Shown: positions 13,957 through 45,354 of the stretch, in pieces
Layout of the letters: each line of letters begins with the position of its first letter
Position numbering within the stretch: position 1 is the stretch's first letter
From: Escherichia coli
GTDB taxonomy: Bacteria; Pseudomonadota; Gammaproteobacteria; Enterobacterales; Enterobacteriaceae
DNA length: 64,000 nt
Assembly: GCF_009931435.1 (NCBI RefSeq)
Contig: NZ_CP043414.1
Strand: one strand, 5' to 3'
Notes under the pieces: generated by a model
Seen by the model: only the letters and a program-made list of their open reading frames with translations
Databases searched by the model: none
Told to the model about the DNA's origin: nothing
Position numbers and translations under genes: made by a program

Positions 13957-14420
13957 TTGGCACCGTGTTTCTGGGTAAACAAACGAAAGGCATCCAGCGT
14001 CTCTTCACTAACATGGTGCTCCATGCCTTCCGCGTCGCGACGGGCGATTTCCGGACTGACGCCCAACACCAACAAGAAATTTTCGACTATCTGATGTCGC
14101 TCGCGGCTTTCCTGCGCCAGTTTCTCTCCTTCTGCCGTTAAAAACACGCCACGCCAGGGGATCATTTCAATCAGCCCCATGGTTGCCAGTCGTTTGAGCA
14201 TTTTAGCCACCGTCGGTTGCGAAACGCCCAGACGAGCAGCCATGTCCACCTGACGAGCTTCCCCCACTTCCCTGATCAAGTCAGAAATCAGCTCAACGTA
14301 ATCATCAATAAGCTCGCGCCGGTGTGCCTCTCTGACCTGGCGGAACCCTTCAACGTGCTCTTCCACATTCACTAACTGCGTCACTTTTTTTGCTGTTGGC
14401 GTACCTGCGCGACGACTCAT
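13953..14420 (-). CDS. mntR: Manganese-responsive transcriptional regulator MntR (DtxR family)
   Basis: 155 aa [31 protein letters not shown]...; recognised MntR. Confidence 0.9.
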
Positions 14421-14520
14421 TGTGCTTCCTCATTATGGTGACGCATACATAGCGTTCTCATTTCGTGCGCACATTGTAAACCAGAGTTGCGAAGGTACAA
14501 AAAATTAACGTTTTAGCAAT

Positions 14521-14547
14521 AGCTATATAATATAGCCATTGCTAAAT
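14521..14547. repeat. Left junction repeat with MntR-box-like dyad (candidate attL/target duplication)
   Basis: agctatataatatagccattgctaaat; 22/27 identical to 45328-45354; lies inside larger palindrome tttagcaatagctatat/atatagccattgctaaa (14512-14546). Confidence 0.4.
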
Positions 14548-14824
14548 ACATAAAATCAAATAAAATCATAATGTTAACAAAACAAAAAAAATAATCAATG
14601 TCGCAAAAATGTCTCACAAAACAAAAGCCATAACTTATTTGCTTGTTTTTTTATAGTGTCAGTATTAATCTAGTATATCAAAATGTTATCACTTCAATTA
14701 TTCTCTGCTTAACATTTATTTAAGAAATAATATTTTTAAGCTCTTTAAAAAAACCTTAAATAACGCTGATAGTTTCTTAGGAAAACTTAACGATAGTGGT
14801 AAATTAATCCCAAAGGACTAAAAA

Positions 14825-16060
14825 ATGGTATTAAGTAACTGTATTCAATGTCAGTCATGCAAATTTATATATAGAGTTAGGGTTGGTATTGGGTTTGATA
14901 AATACCAAAGACATTATATGGACTGTTTTGAGTGTAATATTCCTATTGTTTTTGCTATACGAACAGACCCACCAAATGCTTATCTTGAAGCGGAAGAAAA
15001 CTGCCTAATTGTTGAACATAGTACAGACCACAAGGTTGTTAACTTCCATCCGGGATGTGCTTTTAATAAAGATGAGATACATCAGTCACTGATATTCCCA
15101 TCTATTGAATTGACACAAATGATTCATAAACATATGAGGATGCCGAAAGGACAACGCCTTATAAGTGCCTCTCATCAATTTGATATTCCCAACGCCCCCT
15201 CCAAATGGAATTATTTAAAATCAATAATAAAACTTATTAATGAAGGAAAGAAAGACAAAGCTCAGAATACAGCAAAGCTTTATATGCAATCAAGAAATAA
15301 AGAGTTACCTTTGTATAATGAAGATGATAGCTATTCCTCTACATCTCTAATCTATGAGTTTTTAGATTGGCTTTTCTATCCTCGAGTACATGATATAGCC
15401 GATTCCATTAAAAAAACAATTGATGACCTTAAAGAACAAAATTTGTTGGATGATTTTTACGCTTTCTATAAAGAAAATTTAAAATCCGAAAATGAACAAA
15501 GATACATCAATATAATATCAGATTTCATGGCTCGTAGAGATCATTTCGGGCAGTTAATCTATTACGCAAGAATTAACAACGATGCAATAGACGATAAGAT
15601 AATTAGCTCTAAGAACTTCGATAATGTAAGAAATTATTATGGAGATGCTTATGAAAGTCTGACATCTAACATGACTATTTTAGCATGTATTAATAACATC
15701 GTCAGTGGAAGGGCATTCGATCAGTTCAAGCAAATGACATTGAATAAATACATAAAGGATGTAAATAAAGACAGTAAAACAAACCCATTTAAGGACAACC
15801 CTTTATTTAGCGCATTTTGTGAAGATGATTTAGAGTCAGCAATAAGAAATGGTTCTCATCATGCCTCTATATGGCATGACGGAGAGAGTATTCGATATAG
15901 AAGTGGCGGAACTGGCGCAGAAAGAGAAATAAGCTATACAAAATATATTCACCTTTGTAATAAGCTAACTCTTAAAATCGTAAGTTTGTGGTTAATTGAA
16001 CTTCATATCCAACATATTTACGAAAAAGATGATAATAGCTATGCATGGTTTCATCTTTAA
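14825..16060 (+). CDS. Hypothetical 411-aa protein with N-terminal CxxCxxC...CxxC zinc-ribbon-like cluster; orphan cargo, candidate defence/abortive-infection protein
   Basis: ORF track; A/T-rich codon usage, preceded by ~270 bp of extremely A/T-rich DNA; Cys at 6,9,12,34,37; R-x4-H (RNGSHH) near C-terminus; no family recognised. Confidence 0.5.
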   Translation: MVLSNCIQCQSCKFIYRVRVGIGFDKYQRHYMDCFECNIPIVFAIRTDPPNAYLEAEENCLIVEHSTDHKVVNFHPGCAFNKDEIHQSLIFPSIELTQMIHKHMRMPKGQRLISASHQFDIPNAPSKWNYLKSIIKLINEGKKDKAQNTAKLYMQSRNKELPLYNEDDSYSSTSLIYEFLDWLFYPRVHDIADSIKKTIDDLKEQNLLDDFYAFYKENLKSENEQRYINIISDFMARRDHFGQLIYYARINNDAIDDKIISSKNFDNVRNYYGDAYESLTSNMTILACINNIVSGRAFDQFKQMTLNKYIKDVNKDSKTNPFKDNPLFSAFCEDDLESAIRNGSHHASIWHDGESIRYRSGGTGAEREISYTKYIHLCNKLTLKIVSLWLIELHIQHIYEKDDNSYAWFHL

Positions 16061-16081
16061 GTTAAATATTTGATTCACTAA

Positions 16082-16368
16082 TTTTCAGTTTCTACTCACT
16101 CTAATGATTGTACATAGCCCGCACCATTCTTGGTATTGCGGGCTTTCAGCCGTTTATATCACTTAACGCAATTAGATCATGCAACTTTACACAATATGGT
16201 TTTTTCTATTATTTTTCAGTTGGTTGAATGGATTAGCCATCACACAACTGATCTATAAAACTGAAAAACACTGAAATTCTTTTCAATCTTTTCAGTGGCA
16301 GCTCTCCGGCAAACCGCCAACAGTGGCGCAGCCTGACGCTCACGTTTGTAGAAAAATAAAACTGAAAA
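16082..16368. repeat. Non-coding region with repeated TTTTCAG / CTGAAAA heptamers
   Basis: TTTTCAG at about 16082, 16213, 16289; CTGAAAA/CTGAAAT at about 16261, 16271, 16362; between convergent cargo gene and phage tail operon. Confidence 0.4.
16116..16144 (+). terminator. Possible terminator downstream of the 411-aa gene
   Basis: Hairpin agcccgca...tgcgggct followed by ttcagccgtttat (weak T-run). Confidence 0.35.
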
Positions 16369-16555
16369 ATTTTATCGATCCAGAAACCGCAGGCGGGTGC
16401 GGTGTAGTGCCATTTTGGTCTGCGAAAGATTTATTTTGTCAGTGCGTAGTGCCGTCAGCGCAACGTGACAGCACAGATCCTTTTGTGGTGTTACGGGATG
16501 GTGGTCAGAGAAAAAAAGTGCTTAGAATGCTTCTGGTTGCGTGAGAATACAGGTA

Positions 16556-16578
16556 TAAAAAACCCGCACTAGGCGGGT
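16556..16578 (-). terminator. Rho-independent terminator of the phage late (tail) operon
   Basis: On minus strand: hairpin cccgcctagtgcggg followed by ttttttatac, 12 nt after stop of 16590-16844 ORF. Confidence 0.6.
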
Positions 16579-16589
16579 ACTAAAGAGAG

Positions 16590-16844
16590 CTATTTCATTT
16601 CGTTAAGTGCGTACGCACCTCTATCAGTGAGTGCAAAAAAGCCATCCCTTACGCTGGGTTGAATCAACCCAAACATACGCAATTCACCCAGTATTTGTTC
16701 TGAGCGACTACCAGCACCAGAATGCTTAATTAGTGCAAATTCAGGCTGTGCTTCTTCACTGAGCAAAGTCAATATTTTGACAATGGCGTCACGTTTGCTT
16801 TCATCTGCAATGTCATGGTATGGATTGATGGAACAGGTTACCAT
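16590..16844 (-). CDS. Hypothetical 84-aa protein, possible winged-helix DNA-binding fold
   Basis: ORF track; last gene of tail-operon direction; C-terminal segment GSRSEQILGELRMFGLIQ...FFALTDRGAYAL resembles wHTH regulators. Confidence 0.4.
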   Translation of the reverse strand: MVTCSINPYHDIADESKRDAIVKILTLLSEEAQPEFALIKHSGAGSRSEQILGELRMFGLIQPSVRDGFFALTDRGAYALNEMK

Positions 16845-17020
16845 AGTGTTTTCCTTTTTTTATGAAAATCATATTTTACCATATCCCAACACGCCATATT
16901 GAAGTGCTCAATATTCACTCACCCTAAAAGGTATCTGTTGTGCAATCAGTTCCCCTACTCCCAGGTATCGCGGTTAAACAGGTATCAAAAAGCCGCATTA
17001 TGCGCGGGCTGATGGGATGA

Positions 17021-18724
17021 TCAGGCGATGATTTTCTGGTACTTACTTCGGGTCTGTCCTGCTTTCTCTGCTGTCTGGGTAAATGCTCCGGCATTGGTTG
17101 GCGTACCAACACTGGGGTGCGAATGACTCGCACATTGCTGCGCCAGCTCTGCCAGTAAATCAATGGTGTCCAACATCATGGTCAGCGTGTTTACACTCTC
17201 ACTGCCGATATGGATGGTTGGCCCCATAATCTGCTGACCGCCCGATGCTACCGATTTGCGTAATGCAGTAATCTTTTCAGTCAGGCTTTCGCCAACCTCC
17301 ACGGCTACAGCACCGCCCACTTTAATGGACTGCTGTCCTGCTATGTCCGTTTCTTCGTTTCCTTCAATGCTGGCCAGCCTGTTACCTTTCACGGCCTGGC
17401 TAAAATCCCCGGCACTGACCTGCTGAATGGCTCCGGCTAGCAGGGTGGCGGTCCCCACCACAATGGTTTTATCCGTGGCTTTAACCGTGGTTTCGCGACT
17501 GACCAGATCACGTTGTTCTGTATCTGCTTTTACCGTTCGCACCATCGATGTTTCACTGATGGTCTGATCGGTCTGCCTTACCCAGTCACCCGCCAGAGTC
17601 ACCCTCTGGGATACTTCTTCCCGCTGCTGCTGCAATTGCTCACCGGGTTTAACGTCCGGCAGACTGGTGCCATCCGGTAGCGTCTGCCTGATAAAAGGTT
17701 TATCCGGTCTGCCTCCTGTGAATGCGACCTCAACCAGCGTCCCTTCTGGCGGGAACTGAAACATACCTGAATCATTCCCGGCCATTGGTACCGGCAGCGG
17801 CACCGCTGAATAAACAGGCGTCTGATTGTCCGGATTTCCGTCTGCGTCAAGCAGCTGCACGTCCACGGCGTAACGTGGCCGGAAGGGATCGGCAAAGTTA
17901 CCGCTTTTTACCGGCTCTGAATGCGCCACGACTCTGGCCATCTTTGGCAAATGAAGCCCGGATGCCAGTTCCGGGTAATGGCTTTCAATCTGCCGTTGCG
18001 CTGGTGTTTTCTGCAAAGGTTTACCCGTTGCGCGGTTTCTCGGCGTCCATGTGATCGCCATCGTGTCATTAGTCAGGTGAACTTTAGTCACGCGTTCACC
18101 GTTCATCTCCACCCCTGGCCGCATAGTCTGGATCACTGGTAATGTCACAGAGTTACCGCCAGCAGCCCCCTGGCTGAACTCTGACGGGATTTCTACTGGA
18201 CGACCGGCAAACAATGACTTTTCTGCGCCGCCGACGTAAAGCGAACCATCAGGTAACTGGTACCAGATGTAATCCTGGATACTGAACGCCCTGCCCAGAT
18301 TGTTCAGCAACTGATAACCAGTACCGTTATGGGTAAAATGTGGGATGGGGGTATCGCTGTACTGTGCATCAGGCACACTGACCGTGATCCCGCTGTTTTC
18401 TTCCAGCCAGCCCGCAATTTCACGCAAAGTCGGGTGTTGAAACGAACATGGCCACATCCTTTCAAACACACCTACCAGCTCACGAATGAATAGGCGCTGA
18501 AAACCGTTTTCAGCGGGCTGCGATCGCTCCACATACCCCGTAAACCAGCGCAAAAGCAGATCGGTATACCCCACATCCAGCCGCACCAGTTTTCCGGTGT
18601 AATCGGTTGTTGTCTCTGCGGTGATGAAGCCCCGGCCGCAGCTGTTCAGCTCCAGTACCAGGCTGACATCCACCAGGTGAACTTCATCCGTTGAAAGGTA
18701 AAGACGTTTTACTGGTTTCATCAT
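17021..18724 (-). CDS. Phage tail/baseplate protein, probable hub-spike (gpD/VgrG-like), 567 aa
   Basis: Size, position at end of tail module, Gly/Thr/Val-rich beta-strand-like C-terminal half; family assignment by recall only. Confidence 0.45.
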   Translation of the reverse strand: MMKPVKRLYLSTDEVHLVDVSLVLELNSCGRGFITAETTTDYTGKLVRLDVGYTDLLLRWFTGYVERSQPAENGFQRLFIRELVGVFERMWPCSFQHPTLREIAGWLEENSGITVSVPDAQYSDTPIPHFTHNGTGYQLLNNLGRAFSIQDYIWYQLPDGSLYVGGAEKSLFAGRPVEIPSEFSQGAAGGNSVTLPVIQTMRPGVEMNGERVTKVHLTNDTMAITWTPRNRATGKPLQKTPAQRQIESHYPELASGLHLPKMARVVAHSEPVKSGNFADPFRPRYAVDVQLLDADGNPDNQTPVYSAVPLPVPMAGNDSGMFQFPPEGTLVEVAFTGGRPDKPFIRQTLPDGTSLPDVKPGEQLQQQREEVSQRVTLAGDWVRQTDQTISETSMVRTVKADTEQRDLVSRETTVKATDKTIVVGTATLLAGAIQQVSAGDFSQAVKGNRLASIEGNEETDIAGQQSIKVGGAVAVEVGESLTEKITALRKSVASGGQQIMGPTIHIGSESVNTLTMMLDTIDLLAELAQQCASHSHPSVGTPTNAGAFTQTAEKAGQTRSKYQKIIA

Positions 18725-19269
18725 TAATCCAAAGCATCATTGACGGGCTTCAGCACCTTGCGTTCAAACCACGTCAGTTTTTCTTCATCCTCTCCGGCAG
18801 ACTGGCCACCGAACTGCCCCGCACTACCGGCAGTCTGTTTTTTTGCGGTCGTCTTACCTGTTGCCCTGGCCTCTCGCTTTTCCTGCACGCTGATATGTTC
18901 AGCCAGTGTGAATGTCACCAGCCAGGACATTTTCCCGTCCTGCTGGGGCGCATCCAGCATTCCGCTGAACGTTGCTTCACGAAAATTAACAGCACGGGCA
19001 ACTTCATGCGCCACGCGGTACTTCTGACGATTACCACTGGCATCGGTAGCACTGGCCAGCTCAAAAATACGCTTCAGTATTTCAGGCTGTTTAAAAGGTA
19101 TTTCACCGCTGATCCGCAGTTCCTTTCCCTTTGCTCCCTGCTCTGATTTTGTTGTGGCACTGGTCTGGCCGGACTGATCTTTATCCTGAAATTGCTGTGA
19201 AACAGTCACCCGCATGTTTTTCAGCTGGATGGCCTCGCCATTAAGCGCCAGTGTCGGGATCGAAGTCAT
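18724..19269 (-). CDS. Phage tail-associated protein (possibly gpU-like), 181 aa
   Basis: Start overlaps stop of upstream gene; located in tail module; no motif recognised. Confidence 0.35.
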   Translation of the reverse strand: MTSIPTLALNGEAIQLKNMRVTVSQQFQDKDQSGQTSATTKSEQGAKGKELRISGEIPFKQPEILKRIFELASATDASGNRQKYRVAHEVARAVNFREATFSGMLDAPQQDGKMSWLVTFTLAEHISVQEKREARATGKTTAKKQTAGSAGQFGGQSAGEDEEKLTWFERKVLKPVNDALD

Positions 19270-19966
19270 GAATCATTCCCTTTATTCCATCAAGATTATC
19301 GCCAACCAGCATCATGGCTGCGGTGTAAACGGCAGACTGCTGCGGAATGTCCTTCACCAGTTCCAGTAACGTTGTGCCGGTGTCTCCGCTGGCAGTAAAA
19401 ACCCACGCTCTGGCACTCTTCCCCTGTAAGTCATTCAGGCCGCTGGCCACATCACTGATAAGCTGGTCACGCAGCTGCGTGAACTCGCCCAGCTGTTTTT
19501 TCAGCCCTTCGATATCAAATCCGGCACCCGCCACCTTTTGTGCCTGGTTGATTGCCGCAGCAGATAAAGCTGCCCTGCTGGTTGGTACAGACAGTGGAAT
19601 GGACGCAGGTAACGCTGCGGCGGTTTTCGCCGGGATCTGCATCTTTTCAATAGCCAGCGCTGCGGCGGATTGCGCCAGCCGTTTTACCTGCGTGAATGCC
19701 GGGGCGGGGAAAATCCCGACCAGGTTATTCAGGCTGGCCATAAAGTTTTCCTGCGTCTGTCCGGTGACCATCATAATCACCACGTCCACATTCCCCCCAG
19801 TTCCGGCCAGGCGTTCAGCAAGATAGCGAACAGCATTAACCGGGCTGAGATATGCCCCGTTCGCTGTCTGCTGTCCCAGCCCATAAATCCACGGATGCGC
19901 AGGGACGATCGAACAGTTCAGCGCAGCAACAGAATCCGTGAAGGCCAGACGTGCTTCACGCCACAT
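19241..19966 (-). CDS. Phage tail-associated protein of unknown function
   Basis: Track ORF 19241-20002; likely start at internal ATG (MWREARLAF...) overlapping Tfa stop; Ala-rich. Confidence 0.35.
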   Translation of the reverse strand: MWREARLAFTDSVAALNCSIVPAHPWIYGLGQQTANGAYLSPVNAVRYLAERLAGTGGNVDVVIMMVTGQTQENFMASLNNLVGIFPAPAFTQVKRLAQSAAALAIEKMQIPAKTAAALPASIPLSVPTSRAALSAAAINQAQKVAGAGFDIEGLKKQLGEFTQLRDQLISDVASGLNDLQGKSARAWVFTASGDTGTTLLELVKDIPQQSAVYTAAMMLVGDNLDGIKGMIHDFDPDTGA

Positions 19967-20543
19967 TTCCAGGCACCTCCGGCCACACAATTTCCGGCGC
20001 ATCTTCCGCTTGAATACGATTCAGTAAAACGCGGTATTTTTTCCATGCGGTAAGTAACAATGTTTCTTCCTGGCTCGCCATGCCTAAAACAACAGCATCC
20101 TGCAATGTGGCAATGGCAGTATGGGCCTGTTTAAGCAGTCTTATCTTTTCCAATTCTGCCTCACGGGTTAATGCAACTCGCATAGACTCAGCATCATCCT
20201 CCCATTTACTGCCATTCCATTTTTGCCATGCGTTTTCAGGCTCCAGAGTAGTTGTTCCAGCTGGATAATCCCCTGGTGCTGTTATCACGAACCTTCTAGC
20301 GTCTTTCGTATCAAATACAATTTCGCCACGGTGATCTTTAATAGCAATCCATTTCTGTTTTTCTGTATTAAAAATTGCCACGAATCCGTCTTTTGTTAAT
20401 GGAGGTTTAATTGTGGTGCAATTGGCTGGTAGTCCTGTGTGAGCGGGAATAAAAGCGTTATCACTACCAATAAACTCATTCGTCTCAGAATGAAGTTTAT
20501 AAACAGTAACTGTTTGATCGATATCACTCATTTTAAATATCAT
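19956..20543 (-). CDS. Tail fiber assembly protein (Tfa, gpG-like)
   Basis: 195 aa directly downstream of tail fiber gene with overlapping start/stop; typical Tfa size and N-terminal motif. Confidence 0.7.
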   Translation of the reverse strand: MIFKMSDIDQTVTVYKLHSETNEFIGSDNAFIPAHTGLPANCTTIKPPLTKDGFVAIFNTEKQKWIAIKDHRGEIVFDTKDARRFVITAPGDYPAGTTTLEPENAWQKWNGSKWEDDAESMRVALTREAELEKIRLLKQAHTAIATLQDAVVLGMASQEETLLLTAWKKYRVLLNRIQAEDAPEIVWPEVPGNVA

Positions 20544-22150
20544 TAAGCGAGTCTCACGATATAGTTTAATGCAATGTTTTTAACAGTGTTTTCTGAAGTA
20601 CCCGCAGCATTAACCGTAATGGTGTGTCCATGCGAACCAATCGCAACAGAGTGCGTATGAGCACCAATACCGACAGTATGTTTATGCTCCCCAGCACTTG
20701 CTGCAGTACCTGATACCGAGTGGGTGTGTGCGCCCGCAGAATTCGTTGCACCTAAGTGAGTTTGAGCAGAGTTCGACGAAGCTACTCTACCGGAGCTAAC
20801 GTTAGCATTATCTCCCTGAGATATCGGATGTGTATGTGCACCTGCTGAAGCAGCTGTTCCGCTAACACTATGGGTATGAGCACCAGTGTTATTCGTAGAT
20901 TTAGTTCCATAATCAAACGATGATGTGGTTTTTGTCCCTAAATCGGTATTTGAGGCACTGGCGCTATGGGTATGTGACTTAATATTATCCTGTTCATAAG
21001 ATAATACGGCACGTCCGCTGTTAGGCTTACCTTTAATCGTCTGCCCGCGCATATCAGGAATAACACCCAATGGATACGCAGCAGCCAATAATGGATATAC
21101 TGCCTTATCAAAAGACTGCCCCTGCATAATTGCCCAGCCAGGAGGTGGAATATCTGCTGGCCATGGAAGTGGAACACCAACCGGCAGAACATCACTACGA
21201 CTTAAAACGGCCAGTTCACCCAGCTCCAGGCTTTTTCTTGCTTTCACCTTGTCGCTAACATCAGCAAGGTTTGCATCCTTACGCAAAAAATCGCTGCTGG
21301 CCTGCTGTTCTCCCAGGCTACCCTTTGGCCGTAAATCCGTGATGTTGCCATCCGCATCAATGCTGGCCACAGCAAACACATAATGCTGAACCCCGTTCTG
21401 AACATAATCAGCAAGATTTGCTGCCACCGTGATTTTGCTCTGCACATTCCAGACACTGGTCAGTGTCCCTGTCCAGCACACATCCAGCCAGACTTTTACC
21501 GGCTTTGTCGTTACCGTAATATTCTGATTCGCAGCCAGTGACGCACGAAGTCCAGCCACATACCCCGTGCCTTTCGTGACAAAAAACTGATTGCCGGTTT
21601 TGGCTACCAGATACCCGTTACCAAAAAACGCCGCCGCGCCATAAATATCCATATTTTCCAGGCGCTGGCGTTCATCCATTCCGGCCAGACGTGCAGTAAA
21701 ATCAATCTGCCATGTTTCAGCGGGTGTATTAATCCCGGTTTCCGTTTGTGCGCCATTGTACTCCATCAGAAACGAGCGGGTCAGCACGTTCCCCTGTTGA
21801 CCTTCTTTTGTTTTCAGTTTCTGCTGTGATGGTGCATGGACAATCATTGCCAGCGTACCGCTGGCCTTATTGAGCAGACCGATCCAGTTAAAACTGAAAT
21901 CACCCACATCTGCGCCCAGCACTACGGAATAGACCACACCGTTTTCATCCACCACACCGGTGCGGGTAACAGACTGCCGGTGAACAATCTGTGCAGCCGG
22001 TGGTAATGTTTCATTGCGGTCAACAGGTGTATCCGGGTTTAAATCCGGCACACTGGCAAAAACAAATTCATCCAGTAGTACCGGTTCACCCGTTGCGCCC
22101 TGCTGCGCTTTCCAGTTTTCAAACGCCAATGTGATGGCTGTCTGTGACAT
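20543..22150 (-). CDS. Tail fiber protein (gpH-like) with C-terminal His-rich GAHTHS-type repeats
   Basis: 535 aa; repeated [15 protein letters not shown] / GAHTHPIS / [15 protein letters not shown] units near C-terminus. Confidence 0.75.
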
Positions 22151-22160
22151 AAAAACCTCC

Positions 22161-31928: not shown

Positions 31929-31931
31929 TTA

Positions 31932-32969: not shown

Positions 32970-33015
32970 TTAAGCGATAATAAAAATGTTCTGTATTAAT
33001 CAGCGGCAGTGCGAA

Positions 33016-33819: not shown

Positions 33820-33901
33820 ATCCCCCCTGCTTCACTCCCTGACGCTGCAAATCAATTATTGCCAAATATAACCGCCACCGCATTACGCTTTATTCTTTTC
33901 A

Positions 33902-33926
33902 GTTCGGTTATAACGCTTTGCCGAAC
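33902..33926. promoter_or_regulatory. Dyad-symmetry element GTTCGG-N13-CCGAAC in divergent late promoter region
   Basis: Perfect 6-bp inverted repeat about 55-80 bp upstream of terminase ATG; candidate activator-binding site. Confidence 0.3.
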
Positions 33927-33980
33927 AGACGCGAATTAACACCACCGTTTTTTCATTACAGCCACGGCATAATTATCCGC

Positions 33981-36814: not shown

Positions 36815-36864
36815 GGCGAAAAAGGCTAAAATCCAGGCATCATTTAACAGCTGGAGCATGGAAT

Positions 36865-37134
36865 ATGCGAGTTCTGAAAATCGAATGCCCGGAATGCGGC
36901 TCAAAGGCTGTTATTCGTAAAACAAACCGGAAGCACCGGCAGATTGCGGATATTTACTGCGCATGTTCAGATGTGGAGTGTGGCCATACTTTTGTTATGA
37001 ACCTGACGTTCTCCCACACTCTCAGCCCCAGCGCTAAAACGGGTGATGCGATGGTGCAAAAAATACTGAATGCACTTTCACCCGATCAGCGCCAGATGGC
37101 ATTAGACCTACTGAAAGCGCCCCCCGCCGCCTGA
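36865..37134 (+). CDS. Ogr/Delta-family zinc-finger late-gene transcription activator (C-terminally extended)
   Basis: From ATG 36865: MRVLKIECPECG...YCACSDVECGHTF matches C-x2-C...C-x4-C-x2-TF spacing of Ogr/Delta/186 B. Confidence 0.6.
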   Translation: MRVLKIECPECGSKAVIRKTNRKHRQIADIYCACSDVECGHTFVMNLTFSHTLSPSAKTGDAMVQKILNALSPDQRQMALDLLKAPPAA

Positions 37135-37137
37135 AAT

Positions 37138-37170
37138 GCCCCCATTCTGGGGGCGTTGCCCTTCCTTTTT
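37138..37170 (+). terminator. Rho-independent terminator after ogr-like gene
   Basis: Hairpin gcccccattctgggggc followed by gttgcccttccttttt. Confidence 0.6.
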
Positions 37171-37433
37171 AACCATTTCGCGAACCTCTCCCGCAAGCTC
37201 TCCAATCCAGGCCAAAGCGATTGTTTTCTCTCTCTGGTTACTTTCGTAAACATGGGCAATTTTGGCCAATAACTCAATGCGTTCCAGCTGTGCCGACGCC
37301 TCCAAAAGATCCATTTAGCCCCCACAAGCAATAAATAACTGGATATACATACAGTATACCTTAAAGCACGAATTGTGAAATTTAATTTCCTGTCATCTAC
37401 TGACAAATGAATGCCTTTCACATACTTACACCG

Positions 37434-39458
37434 CTATAACCACCCCGGCCACAGCTCCTGTAATGGCTCGTTTTGAGTCTCTTTAAGCCGTCCGTTGCGG
37501 TAAATCAGAGCGCCCTGACCAAATCTCAAACCACTACCCCGCAGGAGAATAGCTATTTCTTCATCAGAACCATCAAAACCCCGACTGCGTAATTCCAGTT
37601 TTAACCGTCTGCGGGTTCCCCCTTCCGTACAGTTATTGACAGAACTCCAAGGGGCGGCGTTGCCGCCAGAAAAACCCGCCTCCGCTGGCGCTGCGGCCAA
37701 CTTCGCAACCTTCTGCCACTTCACCAGGCGCGTACATACCGCTGAATCTGGAATCAATGGAGAATAGACACCCTGAACGCGCTGCACGTCCTCTGCGTAT
37801 TCATTGCCCTGCTCTGTGATTTCATAAGCCAGACGAACAACCAGATCACGACGGGCAACCAGTGCGCCACCCTGCTCCTGGGTGTATGCCGCCCAGTCCC
37901 CAACATCCGCAGCAGCCAGAACCGCATCCATTCTGCGGTCAGTCAGCACCTGATCACGTAACCGGCGCAACTCGCGCCAGACTGTCACTGGCGCACCGCC
38001 AATCTGCTGAAACTGGCGAATGCGCCAGCGTGAAGCCCATGCAGAAACGGACTTGGCCATATCCCGCAGGTTCTCCCCTGTTTCGTCGTCCTGCTCACCA
38101 TCCAGCGCAAACCCATCAATGTTTTTGGATATGTATTTGGCGATGTAACCCGTAGCCGAACCTTTAGCGGGATCGATGGCTTCAACATGGAAACGTGCCT
38201 TTAGCGCGTTTGGCGTTTGCAGTTCTTCGGAGTCGGTAATTCTGGCGTGATAGCAAAGAATATCGCGCACGGTATCCACATCACCAGGACGCATAAAAAG
38301 CAGCATGTGCCAGTGCGGTGTCCCATCGTGGTGAGGCTCTACCACACGAAAACCAAAAACATGGATACCAGCACGGGAAATAGCGGCGCGGGCTTTCGCC
38401 CATACACCGCATAAGTAACGCTGGGTGTCCTGCGGGGTGCAGCCATCCCACTGTGAAACAAAGCCCCCTTTGCTGTGTACCGCATGGAATCGCGATGGCG
38501 CAGTGATGGTGTAAAACTCACCGGCCAGCCCTTCTTCATTGGCCATATCTTCAAATCCTCTCATTCTTACCATTAGCTCACAGCGACGGATCGCCGGATT
38601 AGCAACGCTGCGGTGCACCATGCTGTCCAGCGCAATACGCAGCCCTTCATCATTCAGCAGGTCAAACTTTTTGAAGAACTCAAGGTTCCGCTTTTTCTGG
38701 TCTATCCATTCGCCCAGGGTTTTACGGGACACATAAGCGCTGGCCGCTTTCTGTACTTGCCCCACTGCAATGGCCATATGCTCACGCTGCATATCCCGCG
38801 CCCGCTTAAGACGCAGATACCACCATTCTGGTGCCATCATGCGGAGGATCCCGGATTCAGCCTTACGCGTTTCCAGTTGCCCGCCATTAGCTTCATGTTC
38901 AGCCCAGTACGGCGGCGGATTGTTCAGCATCAGGGAACACGTGCATAAATGGCGGTAAGACTCCAGCGTACGGCGGCGCAGCTCTGCGGCATCGTCAGTG
39001 CTGCCCACAAACTGATTGGTAAAGTCATACAGTGACTGGGAGATCCAGCCAGATATCTGGCCAGCCAGTTTTTTGAGTTCCGGGCGGTCAAGTGACGGCA
39101 GTCGCTCCAGCGACTTACCGAAAGGAAGATCAAGTGCATCAGCGGCCAGTTTGTAACGTGCAGCCACTTTTCGCAGACGTGGCAATACATTCCCGCCGAT
39201 AGTTTTGCGCAGGAATGTATTGGCACGGCGACGCCCGTCACGACCAGCCAGCAGCTTTTCGTAACGGTTGCCAAAATACCCGGCTAACCAGTCGGGTATT
39301 TCATGCAGGTACTGGGATCGCCATTCATAATCCTGTGGGTTTACAGCCCGCAAACGGCGTTCTGTGATCGTTGCATCTGAAGGAGTGCCAGGCGCAAAGG
39401 TTTCACGCCGCCAGGCATTGACGGCGTGGTGTTGGCCAGGCTCCAGCATATCAACCAC
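37434..39458 (-). CDS. Replication initiation endonuclease (P2 gpA / 186 A family)
   Basis: 674 aa; size and position in early operon downstream of dam. Confidence 0.65.
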   Translation of the reverse strand: MVDMLEPGQHHAVNAWRRETFAPGTPSDATITERRLRAVNPQDYEWRSQYLHEIPDWLAGYFGNRYEKLLAGRDGRRRANTFLRKTIGGNVLPRLRKVAARYKLAADALDLPFGKSLERLPSLDRPELKKLAGQISGWISQSLYDFTNQFVGSTDDAAELRRRTLESYRHLCTCSLMLNNPPPYWAEHEANGGQLETRKAESGILRMMAPEWWYLRLKRARDMQREHMAIAVGQVQKAASAYVSRKTLGEWIDQKKRNLEFFKKFDLLNDEGLRIALDSMVHRSVANPAIRRCELMVRMRGFEDMANEEGLAGEFYTITAPSRFHAVHSKGGFVSQWDGCTPQDTQRYLCGVWAKARAAISRAGIHVFGFRVVEPHHDGTPHWHMLLFMRPGDVDTVRDILCYHARITDSEELQTPNALKARFHVEAIDPAKGSATGYIAKYISKNIDGFALDGEQDDETGENLRDMAKSVSAWASRWRIRQFQQIGGAPVTVWRELRRLRDQVLTDRRMDAVLAAADVGDWAAYTQEQGGALVARRDLVVRLAYEITEQGNEYAEDVQRVQGVYSPLIPDSAVCTRLVKWQKVAKLAAAPAEAGFSGGNAAPWSSVNNCTEGGTRRRLKLELRSRGFDGSDEEIAILLRGSGLRFGQGALIYRNGRLKETQNEPLQELWPGWL

Positions 39459-39651
39459 GGTTAACCCACTTGCGCCAGAAATCTATCAGGAAGGCCACTA
39501 CCAGCGGTAGCCAGAAAACCGCACTCAGAGTGATTAACCCTAAGTCCTCAGCGTCGTGATCAAATTCATCCGGGCATTCGTCCCATAAGAGAAAAGCGAA
39601 AGTGATACAGGCAAACAAGGCATAAAAGCCGGTGATAATTTCCGTCATCAT
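39451..39651 (-). CDS. Small hydrophobic protein (2 predicted TM helices)
   Basis: 66-aa ORF overlapping dam stop and gpA-like start. Confidence 0.3.
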   Translation of the reverse strand: MMTEIITGFYALFACITFAFLLWDECPDEFDHDAEDLGLITLSAVFWLPLVVAFLIDFWRKWVNRG

Positions 39652-40517
39652 GCCACCACCGCCCGAACATCGATCGCAGGGTTAGCAGGTGACTTAAGAA
39701 TCAGCTCAGCGGCCATTTTCTGGCTTGCAGCTGCTGCACCCACACTACGTGGCGCATTTACCCGAACAGCGTCGAATCCTGCATACAGGTAATGCACCAT
39801 TTCCAGATCGCTATTTGACGCGACAACCTTAATCCCACGCTCAGTCAGGCGGCGCAGCTTACGCGCCAGCCGTCCCTGATCCATGTGCGAAAAACCGCGC
39901 TCATGGTAAGCGGTGAAATTATCGCTATCAGTCAGGTAAGGCGGATCACAATAAACAACGTCATGCCCGTCCCTTACCAAATCAAGCGTTTCTGAATAGT
40001 GGGCAGTAATGAACGTTGCACGTTTCGCTTTTTCAGCAAAAGCGCGGATTTCATCAGCAGGAAAGTAGGTTTTTTTGTACTTACCAAAAGGAACATTGAA
40101 CTGGCCACGGCGATTGTATCGGCACAGGCCATTGAAGCAGTGACGGTTCAGATAAAGAAAACGCGCCGCAGCTTCCACAGATTCAGAACCAAAGGATTTG
40201 CCTGATTGGTTGAAGGCATCACGCACCGCGTAATAGAAAACAGCGCGGCTTTCTTCATTGCCTAATGAACCGGCAGAAAATAAAGCCTCCAGCTCAATGA
40301 GCAATGCATCAGTCTGATAGGCCATTGTCTTATACAGATTAACCAGGTCGGGATTCACATCAGCGATCAGGTACTCGCCATAATCCGTATTCATCATGAC
40401 AGCACATGAACCGGCAAAAGGTTCTATCAGGCGCTTGCCCTCCGGCAGATGGGGAAGCAACTGCGGCATAAGGCGGGCTTTACTGCCCACCCACTTAAGC
40501 GGAGTTTTTACTGCCAT
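39648..40517 (-). CDS. DNA adenine methyltransferase (Dam-like N6-adenine MTase), prophage-encoded
   Basis: 289 aa with N-terminal FAGS (EPFAGSCAV) SAM motif and DPPY catalytic motif (VVYCDPPYL). Confidence 0.8.
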   Translation of the reverse strand: MAVKTPLKWVGSKARLMPQLLPHLPEGKRLIEPFAGSCAVMMNTDYGEYLIADVNPDLVNLYKTMAYQTDALLIELEALFSAGSLGNEESRAVFYYAVRDAFNQSGKSFGSESVEAAARFLYLNRHCFNGLCRYNRRGQFNVPFGKYKKTYFPADEIRAFAEKAKRATFITAHYSETLDLVRDGHDVVYCDPPYLTDSDNFTAYHERGFSHMDQGRLARKLRRLTERGIKVVASNSDLEMVHYLYAGFDAVRVNAPRSVGAAAASQKMAAELILKSPANPAIDVRAVVA

Positions 40518-40741
40518 GCTGCACCGCCTTTACTGCAAATCGCTGCGGCTTCTTCGCGGATTAACTCAACGATTTCCGTTGCGCTTAAACCTTCATTGAC
40601 GGCATGGGTGGCCAGCTTATCCAGGCGGGTGGAACACAGATCAGCAGCAGCTGCTTTACCTTCCTGCGTGGCTTTGGTGAGCATAGCCAGCAGGTCAGTG
40701 CCTGATTTTGTTGCGGGTAAATCCTGACATGTCATGTGCAT
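40508..40741 (-). CDS. Hypothetical phage early protein (77 aa)
   Basis: ORF track; operon with overlapping stop/start; no motif recognised. Confidence 0.3.
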   Translation of the reverse strand: MHMTCQDLPATKSGTDLLAMLTKATQEGKAAAADLCSTRLDKLATHAVNEGLSATEIVELIREEAAAICSKGGAAWQ

Positions 40742-40808
40742 TTTGGTTTCCTTAAGGCAAAAGAATCCCCGGCCACCTAAGCTGTGGCCAAAAAATTCAG
40801 GTTGTTAA

Positions 40809-41210
40809 TTAGTGAAAAGCGGGTTGTACAGTGACTGCGGAATGATTCGGTGCTGGAATAAGGTGCAGCTCGTACGTTGTCCGCCACCACTCCTGGATCA
40901 GTGCTTTAATCTCGCCAACACCCAACGCCCCGGCCGTATAGAAAATTGCGCGGATTCCGGCAATTGCTTCAATTTGCGCTTCTTTGCTCTCTGCCTCGCG
41001 GTACACGCAGCACCAAAAAGCGGCATTTATCGCCAGCCAATGACGCGGGTTAGTCATGTGTTCGGTGTCATTGAAGAAGAAAGGATGCAAAGCGATACGG
41101 CCATTTTTACTGGTACTTTTCTCAGCAAAAGCCACAGCGTAATTGTGAGGAACTCCCCACGCGGCCAATTCAGCCCCTAACGATTTACCTTCAACGGAAA
41201 TAATGGCCAT
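40809..41210 (-). CDS. Hypothetical phage early protein (133 aa)
   Basis: ORF track; co-directional early operon. Confidence 0.35.
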   Translation of the reverse strand: MAIISVEGKSLGAELAAWGVPHNYAVAFAEKSTSKNGRIALHPFFFNDTEHMTNPRHWLAINAAFWCCVYREAESKEAQIEAIAGIRAIFYTAGALGVGEIKALIQEWWRTTYELHLIPAPNHSAVTVQPAFH

Positions 41211-41638
41211 CAGAGATTCCCTTGTTGTTGCAACTTATGGACGATGTGAGGCGCGATAATCATCTGCGGCCCCCGATTGTTAATGATTGGATAAACCCGC
41301 TTTATCGGACGGTTCACGGTACTTTTAGAAAAATCACTGTCACGCAATGACCCGAATCCGTTCATCGTCAGACGCGCTCGGGAAATGCCGCAACGCAGTT
41401 GAATCATTGCCCGGTAATCCAGACGCTCAAACAGCTCCCGCCAGCAGCATTTGCTTAAGTGGGCTTTGAATACACTCAAGCCAGAATTAACAGCGGCGGC
41501 ATGGAGAACTACCCCGCGCCATTCAGGTGTTAATTTGTCCCACCAGTCAGCAGCCTCACTACTGGTATTGAAGTATTTGCGGCGAATCTTTTTAAGCTGT
41601 TCCAGTCCGCGCTGTTGCTGTTCCTGGCTAATTGCCAT
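41210..41638 (-). CDS. Hypothetical phage early protein (142 aa)
   Basis: ORF track; start adjacent to stop of upstream small ORF. Confidence 0.35.
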   Translation of the reverse strand: MAISQEQQQRGLEQLKKIRRKYFNTSSEAADWWDKLTPEWRGVVLHAAAVNSGLSVFKAHLSKCCWRELFERLDYRAMIQLRCGISRARLTMNGFGSLRDSDFSKSTVNRPIKRVYPIINNRGPQMIIAPHIVHKLQQQGNL

Positions 41639-41647
41639 AACCCCCCC

Positions 41648-41821
41648 CTATAGCCCCATCAGGCGACGCCACCACGGACGGCGCGGTTGCTGACCATTGA
41701 ATTTGTACATATGACTTGGATTCCAGCGCTGACCAGTTGGCAGTTCGATCCAGCCAGTGGAACCGCTTGGCAGCTGCATAGCCGGTGATTCATTTTTCAG
41801 ATAAGTGACGAACACTTTCAT
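41648..41821 (-). CDS. Hypothetical small phage protein (57 aa, MKVFVTYLKNESPAMQLPSG...)
   Basis: Below ORF-track cutoff; ATG 41819-41821 with gagggag RBS 10 nt after CII-like stop. Confidence 0.35.
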   Translation of the reverse strand: MKVFVTYLKNESPAMQLPSGSTGWIELPTGQRWNPSHMYKFNGQQPRRPWWRRLMGL

Positions 41822-41830
41822 GGTGCTCCC

Positions 41831-42334
41831 TCACATCAAGCCGGTCGCATTAGCCGTAACCAGATCCACCGCTGCGGCCAGAACGGGCGCAGACTGGATA
41901 CGGCTTTCAACGGTATAAGCCAGCACGGATAAGCTGCGGATGGCATCGCGAGCGCGATCCAGAATTTGTGTACGGCGGGCGGCGGTCATATGACCAGTTG
42001 ATACGGCTTCCCCAGCAATTGCACCCACACAGGCTGTGGCACTTAGTGCACACAACTGCATGTTGCCTTCTGTGGCATTGTTCACCGGTACGGATGGGAG
42101 ACAGTTAATCTGCCCCAGCATTCCATCCAGTAAACGTGCATCTTCGGTGTAATCCGTAATAGCTAAAAGCTCGTCACAGGTTAAACGGTGCGGCTGTGCT
42201 GGATTCAATTTGTTACGCAGAATCTGCGGCCTCATACCAACGGCAGCGGCTACATCTTCCAGATTGTGTTCAATTGCAAATGCTCGGCAAGCCGCATCAA
42301 AGTGAGCATGTTTAGAGGTCTGGTAATCAAACAT
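41831..42334 (-). CDS. CII-like phage regulatory protein (186 CII / CP76-type)
   Basis: 167 aa, position immediately downstream of apl/cox-like gene as in 186. Confidence 0.45.
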   Translation of the reverse strand: MFDYQTSKHAHFDAACRAFAIEHNLEDVAAAVGMRPQILRNKLNPAQPHRLTCDELLAITDYTEDARLLDGMLGQINCLPSVPVNNATEGNMQLCALSATACVGAIAGEAVSTGHMTAARRTQILDRARDAIRSLSVLAYTVESRIQSAPVLAAAVDLVTANATGLM

Positions 42335-42364
42335 TGTTTGCCTCTCCCTAATCCGTAGGATGGA

Positions 42365-42619
42365 TTACGCGTTAAGCGAAATATCACATTCGCTTAACGC
42401 CTGAATGGTAAGCGCGGCCATGTTGACTTCGACCAGGCCTTTCTTTTGCTTACCCTTCGGCTTGATAGGTAATTTTCCGTATTCGATCAGGTTCCTAGCG
42501 GTTTCTTTGTTAGTACCAGTACGGCGGCAATACTCGTCTAGAGGCAGGTATGGTTCTGGGATGATGATTGTAATGTTTGGACGCATAAGGCAAACTCCAC
42601 AAGTTAACCTGTACGGCAA
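42365..42619 (-). CDS. Apl/Cox-like or Cro-like small DNA-binding switch protein
   Basis: 84-aa ORF (alt start MRPNITIII at 42586) divergent from CI-like repressor gene. Confidence 0.4.
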   Translation of the reverse strand: MPYRLTCGVCLMRPNITIIIPEPYLPLDEYCRRTGTNKETARNLIEYGKLPIKPKGKQKKGLVEVNMAALTIQALSECDISLNA

Positions 42620-42721
42620 TACAGGGTTATATAAGGCTGCATTCGAAATGTGGAGCCAGATTAATTCGCGTTTCGAGAAGTGTCAATCACAATTTCTCGA
42701 ATCGAGATTTATGGATTCGTT
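42620..42721. promoter_or_regulatory. Lysis-lysogeny switch region with operator-like inverted repeats
   Basis: TTCGAGAA-N14-TTCTCGAA perfect 8-bp inverted repeat (about 42671-42700) and CGAAAtg...cgTTTCG, between divergent regulators. Confidence 0.4.
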
Positions 42722-43303
42722 ATGAGCACATTCAAAATTGACCTGAACGTTGACAGCACCCCGATTCTGGATCGGGTGATCGAGGCTTACGGATTTACGC
42801 AGAAGTTACAGCTAGCAGAACATCTGGACATGGCTGCCAGTTCTCTATCATCACGCTATAAACGTGGAGTTTTCCCAGCTGATATCGTCGTTAAATGTGT
42901 TGCTGAAACAGGCGCTAACCTGGAATGGCTAGCTACTGGTCACGGCCCCAAATTTAATGATGAAGAATTAGACATTCTCAGAATTCCACGCAGCAAGATC
43001 GTTGATGGCCAGCTTTACGACTCAGGCACTCTTATGCTTGATAAAGTCACTTTCCTACCAGGTAAATCACTACCACAACAGCCGTTATGCGTTTTGGATG
43101 GTCTTGTACAGTACATCGTTGACCAGTCTTACTCTGAAGTTTATGACGACGATTGGCTGGTTGAAGTAGAAGGAAAAATTAGCATTCGTACACTGACAAG
43201 AATTCCAGTACGCAAAGTAAGAGTTAGTGGCGTGGGCATGGCTTTTGATTGTGGCATCGACGACATAAAAATCATTGGCCGCGTAGTTCTGACGATTAAA
43301 TAA
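42722..43303 (+). CDS. CI-like prophage repressor (186 CI-type)
   Basis: Track ORF starts at GTG 42680; ATG 42722 gives 193 aa (MSTFKIDLNV...); int immediately downstream. Confidence 0.55.
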   Translation: MSTFKIDLNVDSTPILDRVIEAYGFTQKLQLAEHLDMAASSLSSRYKRGVFPADIVVKCVAETGANLEWLATGHGPKFNDEELDILRIPRSKIVDGQLYDSGTLMLDKVTFLPGKSLPQQPLCVLDGLVQYIVDQSYSEVYDDDWLVEVEGKISIRTLTRIPVRKVRVSGVGMAFDCGIDDIKIIGRVVLTIK

Positions 43304-43304
43304 A

Positions 43305-44360
43305 ATGAGTGTTCGTAAACTTCCTACTGGCGAATGGATCGCCGACTTCTACACCGTCAACCGCAGCAATGGTAAAAACGGGAAGCGTATACGTAAAAAA
43401 TTTGCCACTAAGGGAGAAGCCCTGGCATTTGAGAATCACACGCTTCAAAAGGTAGATAGTGCGCCGTGGTTAGGTGAAGGGAAAGATAAACGAACATTAA
43501 TCGACCTGATTACAATGTGGTACGAGCGCCACGGCGTTGCCCTACGCAATGGTAAAAAGCGTAAAGACGCAATGACCTGGGCGGCGGAGTGTATGGGTTT
43601 TCCGCTGGCCACTGAGTTTAATGCCCAGCTGTTTACAGCATACCGTGCAAAAAGGCTTGAAGGGCATTATGCCCGTACTAACCGTGTTTCTAAGGTTTCA
43701 CCTAAAACAATGAACCTTGAACACGCATATTTTCTGGCTATGTTCAATGAACTGAAACGGATCGGTGAGTGGTCAGCCCCTAACCCACTGGAGAACGTCA
43801 GACAGTACCGTACAGATGAAACTGAAATGGCATTTCTCACTGCTGAGGAAATTGATCGGCTTTTGCTGGAATGCAAACGCAGTAAAGTAAGTTATTTAGA
43901 GTTAGTCGTAAAAATCTGTCTGGCGACTGGCGCAAGATGGAATGAAGCGGCAACACTCAAAAGTTCCCAGATAGCCGGCGGAAAAGTCACCTTCATAAAA
44001 ACAAAAGGGAAAAGGAACCGTTCCATTCCGTTAGATGATGAACTGCTGGCTGAACTACCCGAAACAAAAGGCGCTCTGTTTCCAAAGCCCTGCTATAACG
44101 CTTTCCGTTCCGCTCTGGAACGTGCTGGCATTGAACTACCAGCAGGTCAGCTTACCCACGTACTACGCCATACATTTGCCAGCCACTTTATGATGAACAG
44201 CGGCAACATTCTGGTTCTCCAAAAAATCCTCGGCCATGCCGATATCACTATGACAATGCGGTATGCGCATTTCGCCCCAAGCCACCTTGAAGACGCTGTG
44301 CGACTTAATCCCTTAAAATGCCGCAGCAGCTTAGAAATACTGTCGAGTACCAAAACATAA
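43305..44360 (+). CDS. int: Tyrosine-type phage integrase
   Basis: 351 aa; C-terminal catalytic region HVLRHTFASH...LGHADITMTMRYAHF (R, HxxR, Y). Confidence 0.85.
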   Translation: MSVRKLPTGEWIADFYTVNRSNGKNGKRIRKKFATKGEALAFENHTLQKVDSAPWLGEGKDKRTLIDLITMWYERHGVALRNGKKRKDAMTWAAECMGFPLATEFNAQLFTAYRAKRLEGHYARTNRVSKVSPKTMNLEHAYFLAMFNELKRIGEWSAPNPLENVRQYRTDETEMAFLTAEEIDRLLLECKRSKVSYLELVVKICLATGARWNEAATLKSSQIAGGKVTFIKTKGKRNRSIPLDDELLAELPETKGALFPKPCYNAFRSALERAGIELPAGQLTHVLRHTFASHFMMNSGNILVLQKILGHADITMTMRYAHFAPSHLEDAVRLNPLKCRSSLEILSSTKT

Positions 44361-44380
44361 ACAACAAAGATAAAAGGTCT

Positions 44381-44962
44381 CTAACCTGTTTTCAGCAACA
44401 ACCACTGGAGGAAAACAACAACAATGTAGATTAAAGTTACAGACCCCAGAAACAGCAATAGTTGACAAAAATGAATAAAGGCCGGATGGTGAAGTTTTTG
44501 AGGAACCAAGGTTATATTTCGTGCAATTCCTTCTTTACATCTCACTGTGAGCAACGCGGGTAAGTCAGTATTTATCGACATAACCTCACATCGTATAGAT
44601 TCATGTGGTGCAAGATAATCAAACAACATAACCTGCCTTTCTTCGGCATCACTCTTAATTGTGTAATGCCTTGAGGGCCAAATGTTTACGTACATAGGTG
44701 GGTAATTGAAAATTATCTCCACATTAGTAGCAGGTTCTTTTCCTTCGTTTTTAAAGGCATAGGATTTTGTATGCACCACCTGTTTTGCCTTAACAATTTC
44801 ACCTTCAGCATTACGTAACGGCTCGTTAATTAAATAGCTATATTGGTGAAGCTCTCCATAGCAAATTTTCGCTCCATTTTTAAAAATCTTATTGATAAAT
44901 AAGGTAAAAACAGGAACGAAAAGTGCAAATATTTCTTTCCCATACTGAGTAAGTATATTCAT
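44381..44962 (-). CDS. Hypothetical 193-aa protein with C-terminal TM helix; orphan cargo adjacent to int
   Basis: ORF track; A/T-rich; hydrophobic C-terminus AFIHFCQLLLFLGSVTLIYIVVVFLQWLLL; convergent with int; weak RBS. Confidence 0.4.
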   Translation of the reverse strand: MNILTQYGKEIFALFVPVFTLFINKIFKNGAKICYGELHQYSYLINEPLRNAEGEIVKAKQVVHTKSYAFKNEGKEPATNVEIIFNYPPMYVNIWPSRHYTIKSDAEERQVMLFDYLAPHESIRCEVMSINTDLPALLTVRCKEGIARNITLVPQKLHHPAFIHFCQLLLFLGSVTLIYIVVVFLQWLLLKTG

Positions 44963-45104
44963 TACTTGTCCACAAAAAGTTGAAATGGTTACCCACCGTG
45001 TTCCTAAAGCAGTCGTTCACCCTACTCTAGTTCTTAGAATAGAAATTCTACATAACTTCAAGCAGCTAACTCAACATAACAATTGAAAAGGTAATCACTC
45101 TGTA

Positions 45105-45260
45105 AGCGTACCCATTTTAATTTCAGCCGCTTTCTGGCTTGCAGCCGCTACCCCCGCATTGCGCGGTGCATTTCGCCCCAAGCTACCTTGAAGAAGCTGT
45201 ACGCTTAACCCCTTAAAATGTCGCAAAATTGTCGCGACAGCTTAGAAACACTGCCGAATA
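45105..45260. pseudogene. Fossil fragments of a related element: dam-like 3' end (minus sense) fused to int-like 3' end (plus sense)
   Basis: 45121-45180 about 75 percent identical to dam 3' region 39703-39760; 45168-45260 about 90 percent identical to int 3' end 44268-44350 but with 1-nt deletion and ~11-nt insertion. Confidence 0.5.
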
Positions 45261-45327
45261 CTCACGAATATTAACTAACGTAACTTATTGATAACACTGT
45301 AAGTTACTGTTTTTCGTAGATAGTTAA

Positions 45328-45354
45328 TGCTTTATAATATAGCCTGTGCTATAT
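45328..45354. promoter_or_regulatory. Right junction repeat containing MntR box (ATAGC-N4-GCTAT) upstream of mntS
   Basis: tgctttataatatagcctgtgctatat; palindrome ATAGCctgtGCTAT matches MntR operator architecture; 22/27 identical to 14521-14547. Confidence 0.5.

Follow-up and report, generated by a model that had tools for sequence, protein, structure and literature searches.

Probable site-specific integration of a P2/186-like prophage into the mntR-mntS spacer of Escherichia coli at the mntS promoter core

Introduction

P2-like phages often integrate into intergenic DNA, and their short or imperfect cores are deduced from the comparison of attL and attR; 186-type integrases tend towards tRNA genes (Nilsson et al. 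2011, PMC3448106). Phage HK022 integrates between torS and torT, where attB lies in the short spacer of divergent genes at a transcription-factor site. In its lysogens torS is cut off from the IscR site and transcribed from a promoter of the phage, and natural isolates carry prophages at this site with an occupancy of ~5% (Carey et al. 2019, PMC6814406). HK022 is a precedent for an insertion that can replace host cis-regulation (PMC6814406). The present work concerns a 64,000-nucleotide stretch of Escherichia coli DNA (contig NZ_CP043414.1, referred to below as the window), in which a prophage lies between the manganese-related genes mntR and mntS.

The arrangement is very probably the result of integration of a P2/186-like temperate myovirus, via its own tyrosine integrase, into an attB in the mntR-mntS spacer, with the mntS promoter core being rebuilt. 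Strand exchange would have occurred within TATAATATA, the segment that holds the mntS -10 hexamer. Since the core and the conserved left arm GCTTTAT are common to attP and attB, the resulting attR would regenerate the mntS -10, start, MntR box and leader.

The event is of a known kind; its attB is new, and its arm repeat is of another sequence. As in the integration modules of P2, 186, W-phi and phiD145, a tyrosine integrase stands beside a CI/Cox switch, and attP, as in phages of the P2/186 type, has direct arm repeats flanking a short core. The arm repeat TGTCGC-N5-TGTCGC differs from the consensus repeats tgTGGaCa and tgccGCCActt of PMC3448106, and the 186-type switch (CI/CII) is found at a non-tRNA site, unlike the 186-type tendency. 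In contrast to HK022, the crossover falls within a promoter core, with the mntS operator, -10 and start site being rebuilt; relatives occupy the site in ~0.5% of complete E. coli genomes (plus one Citrobacter) versus ~5% for the HK022 site.

The attB formed by the mntS -10 and MntR operator is not among the sites listed in PMC3448106, and no description of mntR-mntS as an attachment site was found in the literature searched (an incomplete library). Phages phiECO1-3 and phiSEN1 (Nilsson 2011) were considered as possible earlier examples; judged by coordinates only, and by the 3.5 Mb site of Salmonella Typhi that they share, their location at mntR-mntS is unlikely. For P2/186-like phages of E. 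coli and Citrobacter, the locus would be an attachment site that had not been listed before.

Insertion site and junctions

As the empty-site reference, the interval between mntS and mntR in strain K-12 MG1655 with its surroundings was aligned to both flanks of the window. In the empty site mntR and mntS are divergent genes, separated in K-12 by 185 bp. The main features of the occupied site are as follows.

13953-14420, minus strand: host gene mntR (NCBIfam NF008273, 269 bits versus a cut-off of 153), collinear with K-12 b0817
14538-45332: prophage body, Peduoviridae, P2/186-like, by PHROG matches and identity to phage genomes
45413-45541, plus strand: host gene mntS (NCBIfam NF033226, 96 bits versus a cut-off of 36)

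The left flank is identical to K-12 through 14537 and the right flank from 45333 on. The 12-mer TATAATATAGCC is present in two exact copies in the window (14526 and 45333) and in one copy in K-12, and its two copies are the points where collinearity with K-12 breaks, so the repeats are no chance occurrence. The insert comprises 30,807 bp (45333 minus 14526), one core copy included, and is of mixed composition, with stretches of 33-40% GC at either end. Of 5,421 complete E. coli genomes matched by a 161-bp probe across the K-12 site, 5,392 carry the site uninterrupted and 29 show the probe sequence in two parts. The initial annotation of this DNA, made from its letters alone, had described mntR and mntS as split by a prophage ending at two imperfect repeats; the K-12 alignment, PHROG matches and phage identity bear this out.

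The left 27-mer, AGCTATATAATATAGCCATTGCTAAAT (14521-14547), and the right 27-mer, TGCTTTATAATATAGCCTGTGCTATAT (45328-45354), are identical at 22 of 27 positions, exactly as had been annotated. The K-12 spacer contains one copy only, AGCTATATAATATAGCCTGTGCTATAT, from which attL differs at three positions, all at the right side, and attR at two, both at the left side. Outside the 12-bp core, 10 of 15 positions match (P ~0.002 at local base composition). Since K-12 has a single copy of the sequence and the mismatches are distributed in this way, the two 27-mers are, as far as sequence can tell, a hybrid attL (B-O-P') and a hybrid attR (P-O-B'). A junction pattern of this kind is what reciprocal site-specific recombination of a phage attP with an attB resembling it leaves behind.

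Two other origins of the repeats had been offered alongside an att core, and of the three only the att core stands. Short direct repeats at both ends of the insert could be a target-site duplication left by a transposition-like insertion of a genomic island. Such a duplication predicts two host copies, whereas here the outer parts of the repeats are host DNA and the inner parts foreign, which is reflected in the hybrid mismatches. Besides, the insert has arm repeats and genes for a tyrosine integrase and a Cox-like excisionase but none for a transposase, and the same joint of P arm and core recurs in more than 27 genomes, which leaves target duplication with hardly any probability; the K-12 alignment already refutes it.

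The pre-existence of two tandem operator repeats, between which the element landed, draws on the two MntR-like boxes of K-12, which are 19 bp apart (9/10 and 10/10) and have the crossover between their centres. It is nevertheless highly improbable: both the 27-mer and the 12-bp core are single in K-12, the 161-bp site is likewise uninterrupted in the 5,392 genomes, no uninterrupted genome with both 27-mers was seen, and the flanks of the second copy (TGCTT... and ...ATTGCTAAAT) are phage DNA.

Core and limits of the crossover

The exactly identical core has a length of 12 bp (TATAATATAGCC), not 27 bp.

14526-14537: attL copy of the core, TATAATATAGCC; the left flank ceases to match K-12 after 14537
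45333-45344: core copy in attR, including the mntS -10 hexamer TATAAT (45333-45338); predicted crossover within 45333-45341

The limits of the crossover were derived from a comparison of the junctions of the window and of seven fetched related prophages at the mntR-mntS site. The P side (GATAGTTRATGCTTTAT plus core) is kept throughout, in each of the 8 prophages from E. coli as well as in Citrobacter, and the sequence of the P' side just past the core is different in every lineage. Host identity on the P' side of the site relatives is limited to TATAATATA(GC), so that the 27-bp unit, previously taken for the functional core, could not be upheld as such. In attL of strain 573 a phage-type A follows directly after TATAATATA, and divergence starts there. 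Because this strain diverges right after TATAATATA and the phage-type T at 45332 is retained in attR, both strand exchanges would be confined to the 9 bp of TATAATATA (14526-14534 / 45333-45341).

By the same comparison the 27-mer is composed of the 12-bp core, a left part reflecting the conserved C/B arm and a lineage-specific right part, ATTGCTAAAT, which is peculiar to the lineage of the window and strain MFDS1016424. The centre of attB is a perfect dyad, GCTATAT-A-ATATAGC.

Attachment arms

Both arms of the predicted attP contain a tandem repeat of the same type. The features of the arms are listed below.

14599-14615, plus strand: tandem direct repeat TGTCGCAAAAATGTCTC of the P' arm, candidate arm-type integrase site, 73 bp right of the attL core
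45219-45235, plus strand: tandem direct repeat TGTCGCAAAATTGTCGC of the P arm, candidate arm-type integrase site, 114 bp left of the attR core
45281-45293, minus strand: IHF-consensus match TATCAATAAGTTA, a pattern match only
45280-45307: 8-bp inverted repeat GTAACTTA...TAAGTTAC around the IHF-consensus match
45168-45279, plus strand: P arm, left over from a duplication of the 3' end of int and still carrying the arm repeats, aligning to 44267-44365
44381-44962, minus strand: 193-aa moron between int and the P arm, without a PHROG, PADLOC or NCBIfam match

The tandem TGTCKC-N5-TGTCKC, which is probably the arm site of the integrase, occurs exactly twice in the 64 kb, both times on the plus strand, versus 0.07 occurrences expected. 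The P' arm repeat is present in all 7 related prophages, and the P arm repeat in all relatives and in Citrobacter. An IHF-type WATCAANNNNTTR is found once in each arm (consensus matches only). The predicted attP junction was reconstructed as GCTTTATAATATAGCCATTGC.

In relatives, the stretch matching 45168-45279 is the true 3' end of int. Most of them are without the 193-aa gene, and their int ends ~90 bp from the core. Insertion of the moron was accompanied by duplication of the int 3' end, whose int-proximal copy (44267-44365) has lost one repeat and whose distal copy retains both arm repeats.

Among integrases of phage records, the closest (76%) belongs to Salmonella phage S.Kent 1-2-1, which has the same arm motif, TGTCGCAAAAGTGTCGC. 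Its arm repeat is followed by GGTTCAAGTCC...CCA, resembling a tRNA 3' end, and then by host-like DNA; ARAGORN found no complete tRNA at the att region of this phage. In tRNA-targeting relatives attP duplicates the host sequence that it interrupts and the target stays functional, as at mntS. Their core is a tRNA 3' end; in the window a sigma-70 -10 box and half of an operator take this place. This suggests that core specificity was switched from a tRNA to a promoter target within one integrase clade, with the arm sites kept.

MntR boxes and the mntS promoter

According to reviews (PMC9315381, PMC8632737), mntS/rybA is repressed by MntR. A motif scan of K-12 found the exact ATAGC-N4-GCTAT upstream of mntH, mntP and mntS, and mntP and mntS each have one exact box and one nearby 9/10 box. 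Overlap of the integration site with an MntR operator, as claimed in the initial annotation, agrees with this distribution. Four box-like sequences are located at the junctions.

14513-14526: host MntR-like box 1, TTAGC-AATA-GCTAT (9/10), which stays with mntR; the same box is found in K-12
14532-14545: hybrid MntR-like box of attL, ATAGC-CATT-GCTAA (9/10), with a host/core left half and a phage right half
45320-45333: phage-derived box-1-like sequence, ATAGT-TAAT-GCTTT (8/10), now at the position of box 1 upstream of mntS
45339-45352: exact MntR box 2, ATAGC-CTGT-GCTAT, identical to K-12

The exact motif occurs in the window at 45339 (mntS) and 49436 only, and 30 shuffles of the window gave none. 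The second occurrence, ATAGCCGGTGCTAT (49436-49449), falls into the dps-rhtA spacer (~K-12 848,974). The gene dps has been reported as an MntR target, with which this motif is consistent. The operators at mntH, mntP and dps share the same exact motif, but only that of mntS doubles as an attachment site.

The RefSeq 5' end of rybA, 853064, corresponds to window position 45346. Relative to it, TATAAT occupies -13 to -8, the 12-bp core -13 to -2 and the exact box 2 -7 to +7, a placement compatible with repression. On these coordinates the mntS -10 hexamer lies within the predicted crossover segment, and the exact MntR box directly adjoins that segment. The K-12 attB is a quasi-palindrome with arms matching at 13 of 17 positions, formed by boxes 1 and 2.

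An MntR-like dyad had been assigned to each repeat: the right one is exact and of host origin, and the attL one proved peculiar to the phage lineage, since the hybrid box is not kept in other prophage variants. The boxes of attL (9/10) and attR (8/10) that are hybrid or phage-derived are box-like by sequence only.

The palindrome of attL

As previously noted, the left repeat is part of a larger palindrome.

14512-14546: near-perfect palindrome of attL, 35 bp, with 17-nt arms matching at 16 of 17 positions

It consists of the host B arm TTTAGCAATAGCTATAT, a central A, and the core with the start of P', ATATAGCCATTGCTAAA. The 9 nt that follow the core on the phage side, ATTGCTAAA (14538-14546), are the exact reverse complement of the host sequence TTTAGCAAT. 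The probability of such a 9/9 extension of the palindrome by chance is ~1e-5, or ~7e-5 over the seven lineages. The six other phage variants at the site lack the extension, so recombination does not depend on it. Copied along with it are three of the four spacer bases of host box 1, which MntR recognition should not need.

Coincidence in AT-rich DNA could account for the similarity past the 12-bp core, as A+T makes up 67% of the region and nothing comparable is seen in the P' arms of the relatives. The low probabilities of the 10/15 matches and of the 9-nt extension, also when corrected for seven variants, speak against coincidence, which is accordingly rated unlikely.

On the reading preferred here, which is given slightly less than an even chance, ATTGCTAAA was copied from the host arm through quasi-palindrome template switching in a lysogen and has since been carried in the P' arm of this lineage. 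The template switch at attL could have been nucleated by the native 15-bp perfect dyad, and the ATTGCTAAA patch, being located right of the crossover, would leave with the phage upon excision. Capture of host DNA was considered as another source of ATTGCTAAA; a native host site with ATATAGCCATTGCTAAAT was sought and none was found.

Selection could also have produced the similarity, if the box-like sequences of attP keep manganese control at the junctions or if MntR gates integration and excision. Across both boxes attP and attB match at 26 of 35 positions, with mismatches mostly in the N4 spacers; the P-side box-like sequence is kept in all variants and in Citrobacter; both junctions of the window lysogen have a two-box layout at native spacing; and the extension is improbable by chance. 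The P'-side box, however, is absent from six variants using the site and is thus needed neither for recombination nor for lysogeny. The copied spacer bases of box 1 favour templated copying, and a core-type integrase site would account equally well for the conserved similarity on the P side. Operator mimicry under selection is therefore an improbable explanation.

The broader proposal that the overlap of attB and operator is functional is likewise doubtful. Mn-MntR on attB, attR or attL would compete with the integrase, or the box-like arms of attP would be selected for manganese control at both junctions; conversely, read-through from cI-int would raise MntS. If this were true, lysogenization and excision in this phage family would respond to the manganese status of the cell, and read-through into mntS would alter the manganese tolerance of lysogens. 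The site offers a natural test that can be engineered, of a repressor at attB versus access of the integrase, and of the upstream swap or read-through versus mntS expression and manganese tolerance.

Several points weigh against integrase-mediated insertion that rebuilds the mntS promoter, or against parts of this history. The reconstructed attP (a 669-nt query in blastn) had no match in 50,697 phage records (INPHARED), and attP was not found in IMG/VR (21-mer) or in metagenome contigs (22-mer); the sole match in the attP searches was one further E. coli attL contig. With no free attP found, excision competence is presumptive. The missing match is an absence of sampling, not proof of an inactive prophage. 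The mntS operator is assigned from the motif test and from reviews, and the template-switch origin of ATTGCTAAA is an inference. A consensus-like candidate mntR promoter, ATTACA-18-TATATT (45365-45336, mntR strand), would be split by the insertion, so that an effect of the insertion on mntR is possible.

Effect on host regulation

From -13 downstream, the promoter core, start, operator and leader of mntS and the gene itself are the same as in K-12, base for base. Upstream of -13, the weak -35/A-tract region of the host and the imperfect box 1 are replaced by P-arm DNA of the phage. The mntR side keeps its native proximal 105 bp, box 1 and half of box 2. Repression of mntS by Mn-MntR through box 2 should persist.

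Promoter and terminator scans are treated as leads only, their counts not being above those of shuffled sequence; the exception is the attL palindrome as a terminator-like match (1 versus 0.2 expected). No terminator-like site was predicted between mntS and int, which faces it, so the lysogenic transcript of cI and int may extend into mntS; such read-through may be likelier in relatives without the convergent 193-aa gene. Any change in mntS control would come from the swapped upstream DNA or from this read-through, and rewiring of host regulation by the prophage, as initially suggested, is no more than possible. The practical value is modest: better calls of prophage boundaries, and ~0.5% of E. 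coli with altered DNA upstream of mntS.

Prophage genes

The insert is apparently an intact Peduoviridae prophage. Escherichia phage ESSI2_ev129 (genus Quadragintavirus) is 92% identical to region 16501-41500, of which 95% is covered, and ev015 and ev040 (Peduoviridae, Quadragintavirus) were matched likewise over 25 kb. PHROG matches in the body include a P2 A-type replication nickase, a methyltransferase and baseplate proteins, and the gene order is the full P2-type one, by the annotation of an almost identical prophage in strain MFDS1016424. ESSI2_ev129, ev015 and ev040 have a different integration module. The genes of the module and the cargo gene near attL are as follows.

41831-42334, minus strand: CII-like activator (phrog_101, E = 1e-44)
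42365-42619, minus strand: Cox/Apl-like excisionase-repressor (phrog_575, E = 2.5e-27)
42680-43303, plus strand: CI-type immunity repressor (phrog_4, phrog_34054), 'phage repressor' in the annotation of MFDS1016424
43305-44360, plus strand: tyrosine integrase pointing at mntS (phrog_1, E = 4e-73)
14825-16060, plus strand: cargo gene of 411 aa, 33% GC, in the att-proximal variable slot

The R...HxxR...Y motifs are visible in the alignment of the integrase with those of the site relatives. Integrases of prophages at the mntR-mntS site are 96% identical; identity to integrases of phage records is at most 76%, and ~62% to those of the 186-like phages.

The 411-aa protein has an N-terminal four-Cys beta domain and a helical domain with an R-N-x3-H motif. 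For the two cargo open reading frames (411 aa and 193 aa) no PADLOC, NCBIfam, PHROG or Pfam match was obtained, and a Foldseek search of the 411-aa model against the PDB gave nothing significant. In Enterobacter, a homologue with 70% identity to the 411-aa protein stands at the end of a different P2/186-like remnant beside mug and rpoD. This homologue is always followed by a 257-aa partner, which is lacking in the window phage.

Recurrence at the site and variable cargo

The same P arm and integrase are located beside mntS in at least 27 complete E. coli genomes. In Citrobacter amalonaticus the same attR adjoins its mntS (a scan with one genome per species). An exact 23-nt match to the P arm and core in Frischella japonica was rejected as chance in AT-rich DNA, its surroundings being dissimilar.

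The seven fetched genomes comprise four full prophages (30.9-32 kb) and three remnants (8-13 kb). The remnants, PSS-07, 573 and Combat13F7, arose by deletion and have kept int, cI, cII, both att junctions and variable cargo, so the structural genes are lost sooner than the cargo and the integration module.

The slot from the core/P' repeat to the first tail gene (window 14538-16500) is hypervariable among the prophages at the site. It holds an AIPR Abi protein in strain 573, an AAA ATPase with a serine O-acetyltransferase in AHB29, an ATPase with STAS and PIN in JNE25-001, and DUF6680 with a hypothetical protein and a DprA-like protein in PSS-07. Divergence of the slot from the very edge of the core hints at cargo exchange by the integrase at the core. 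In the prophage that E. coli strain Br_190_kylling has at this site, a 'putative phage abortive infection protein' is added between ogr and the replication gene, and this interval looks like a second cargo hotspot of the phage family.

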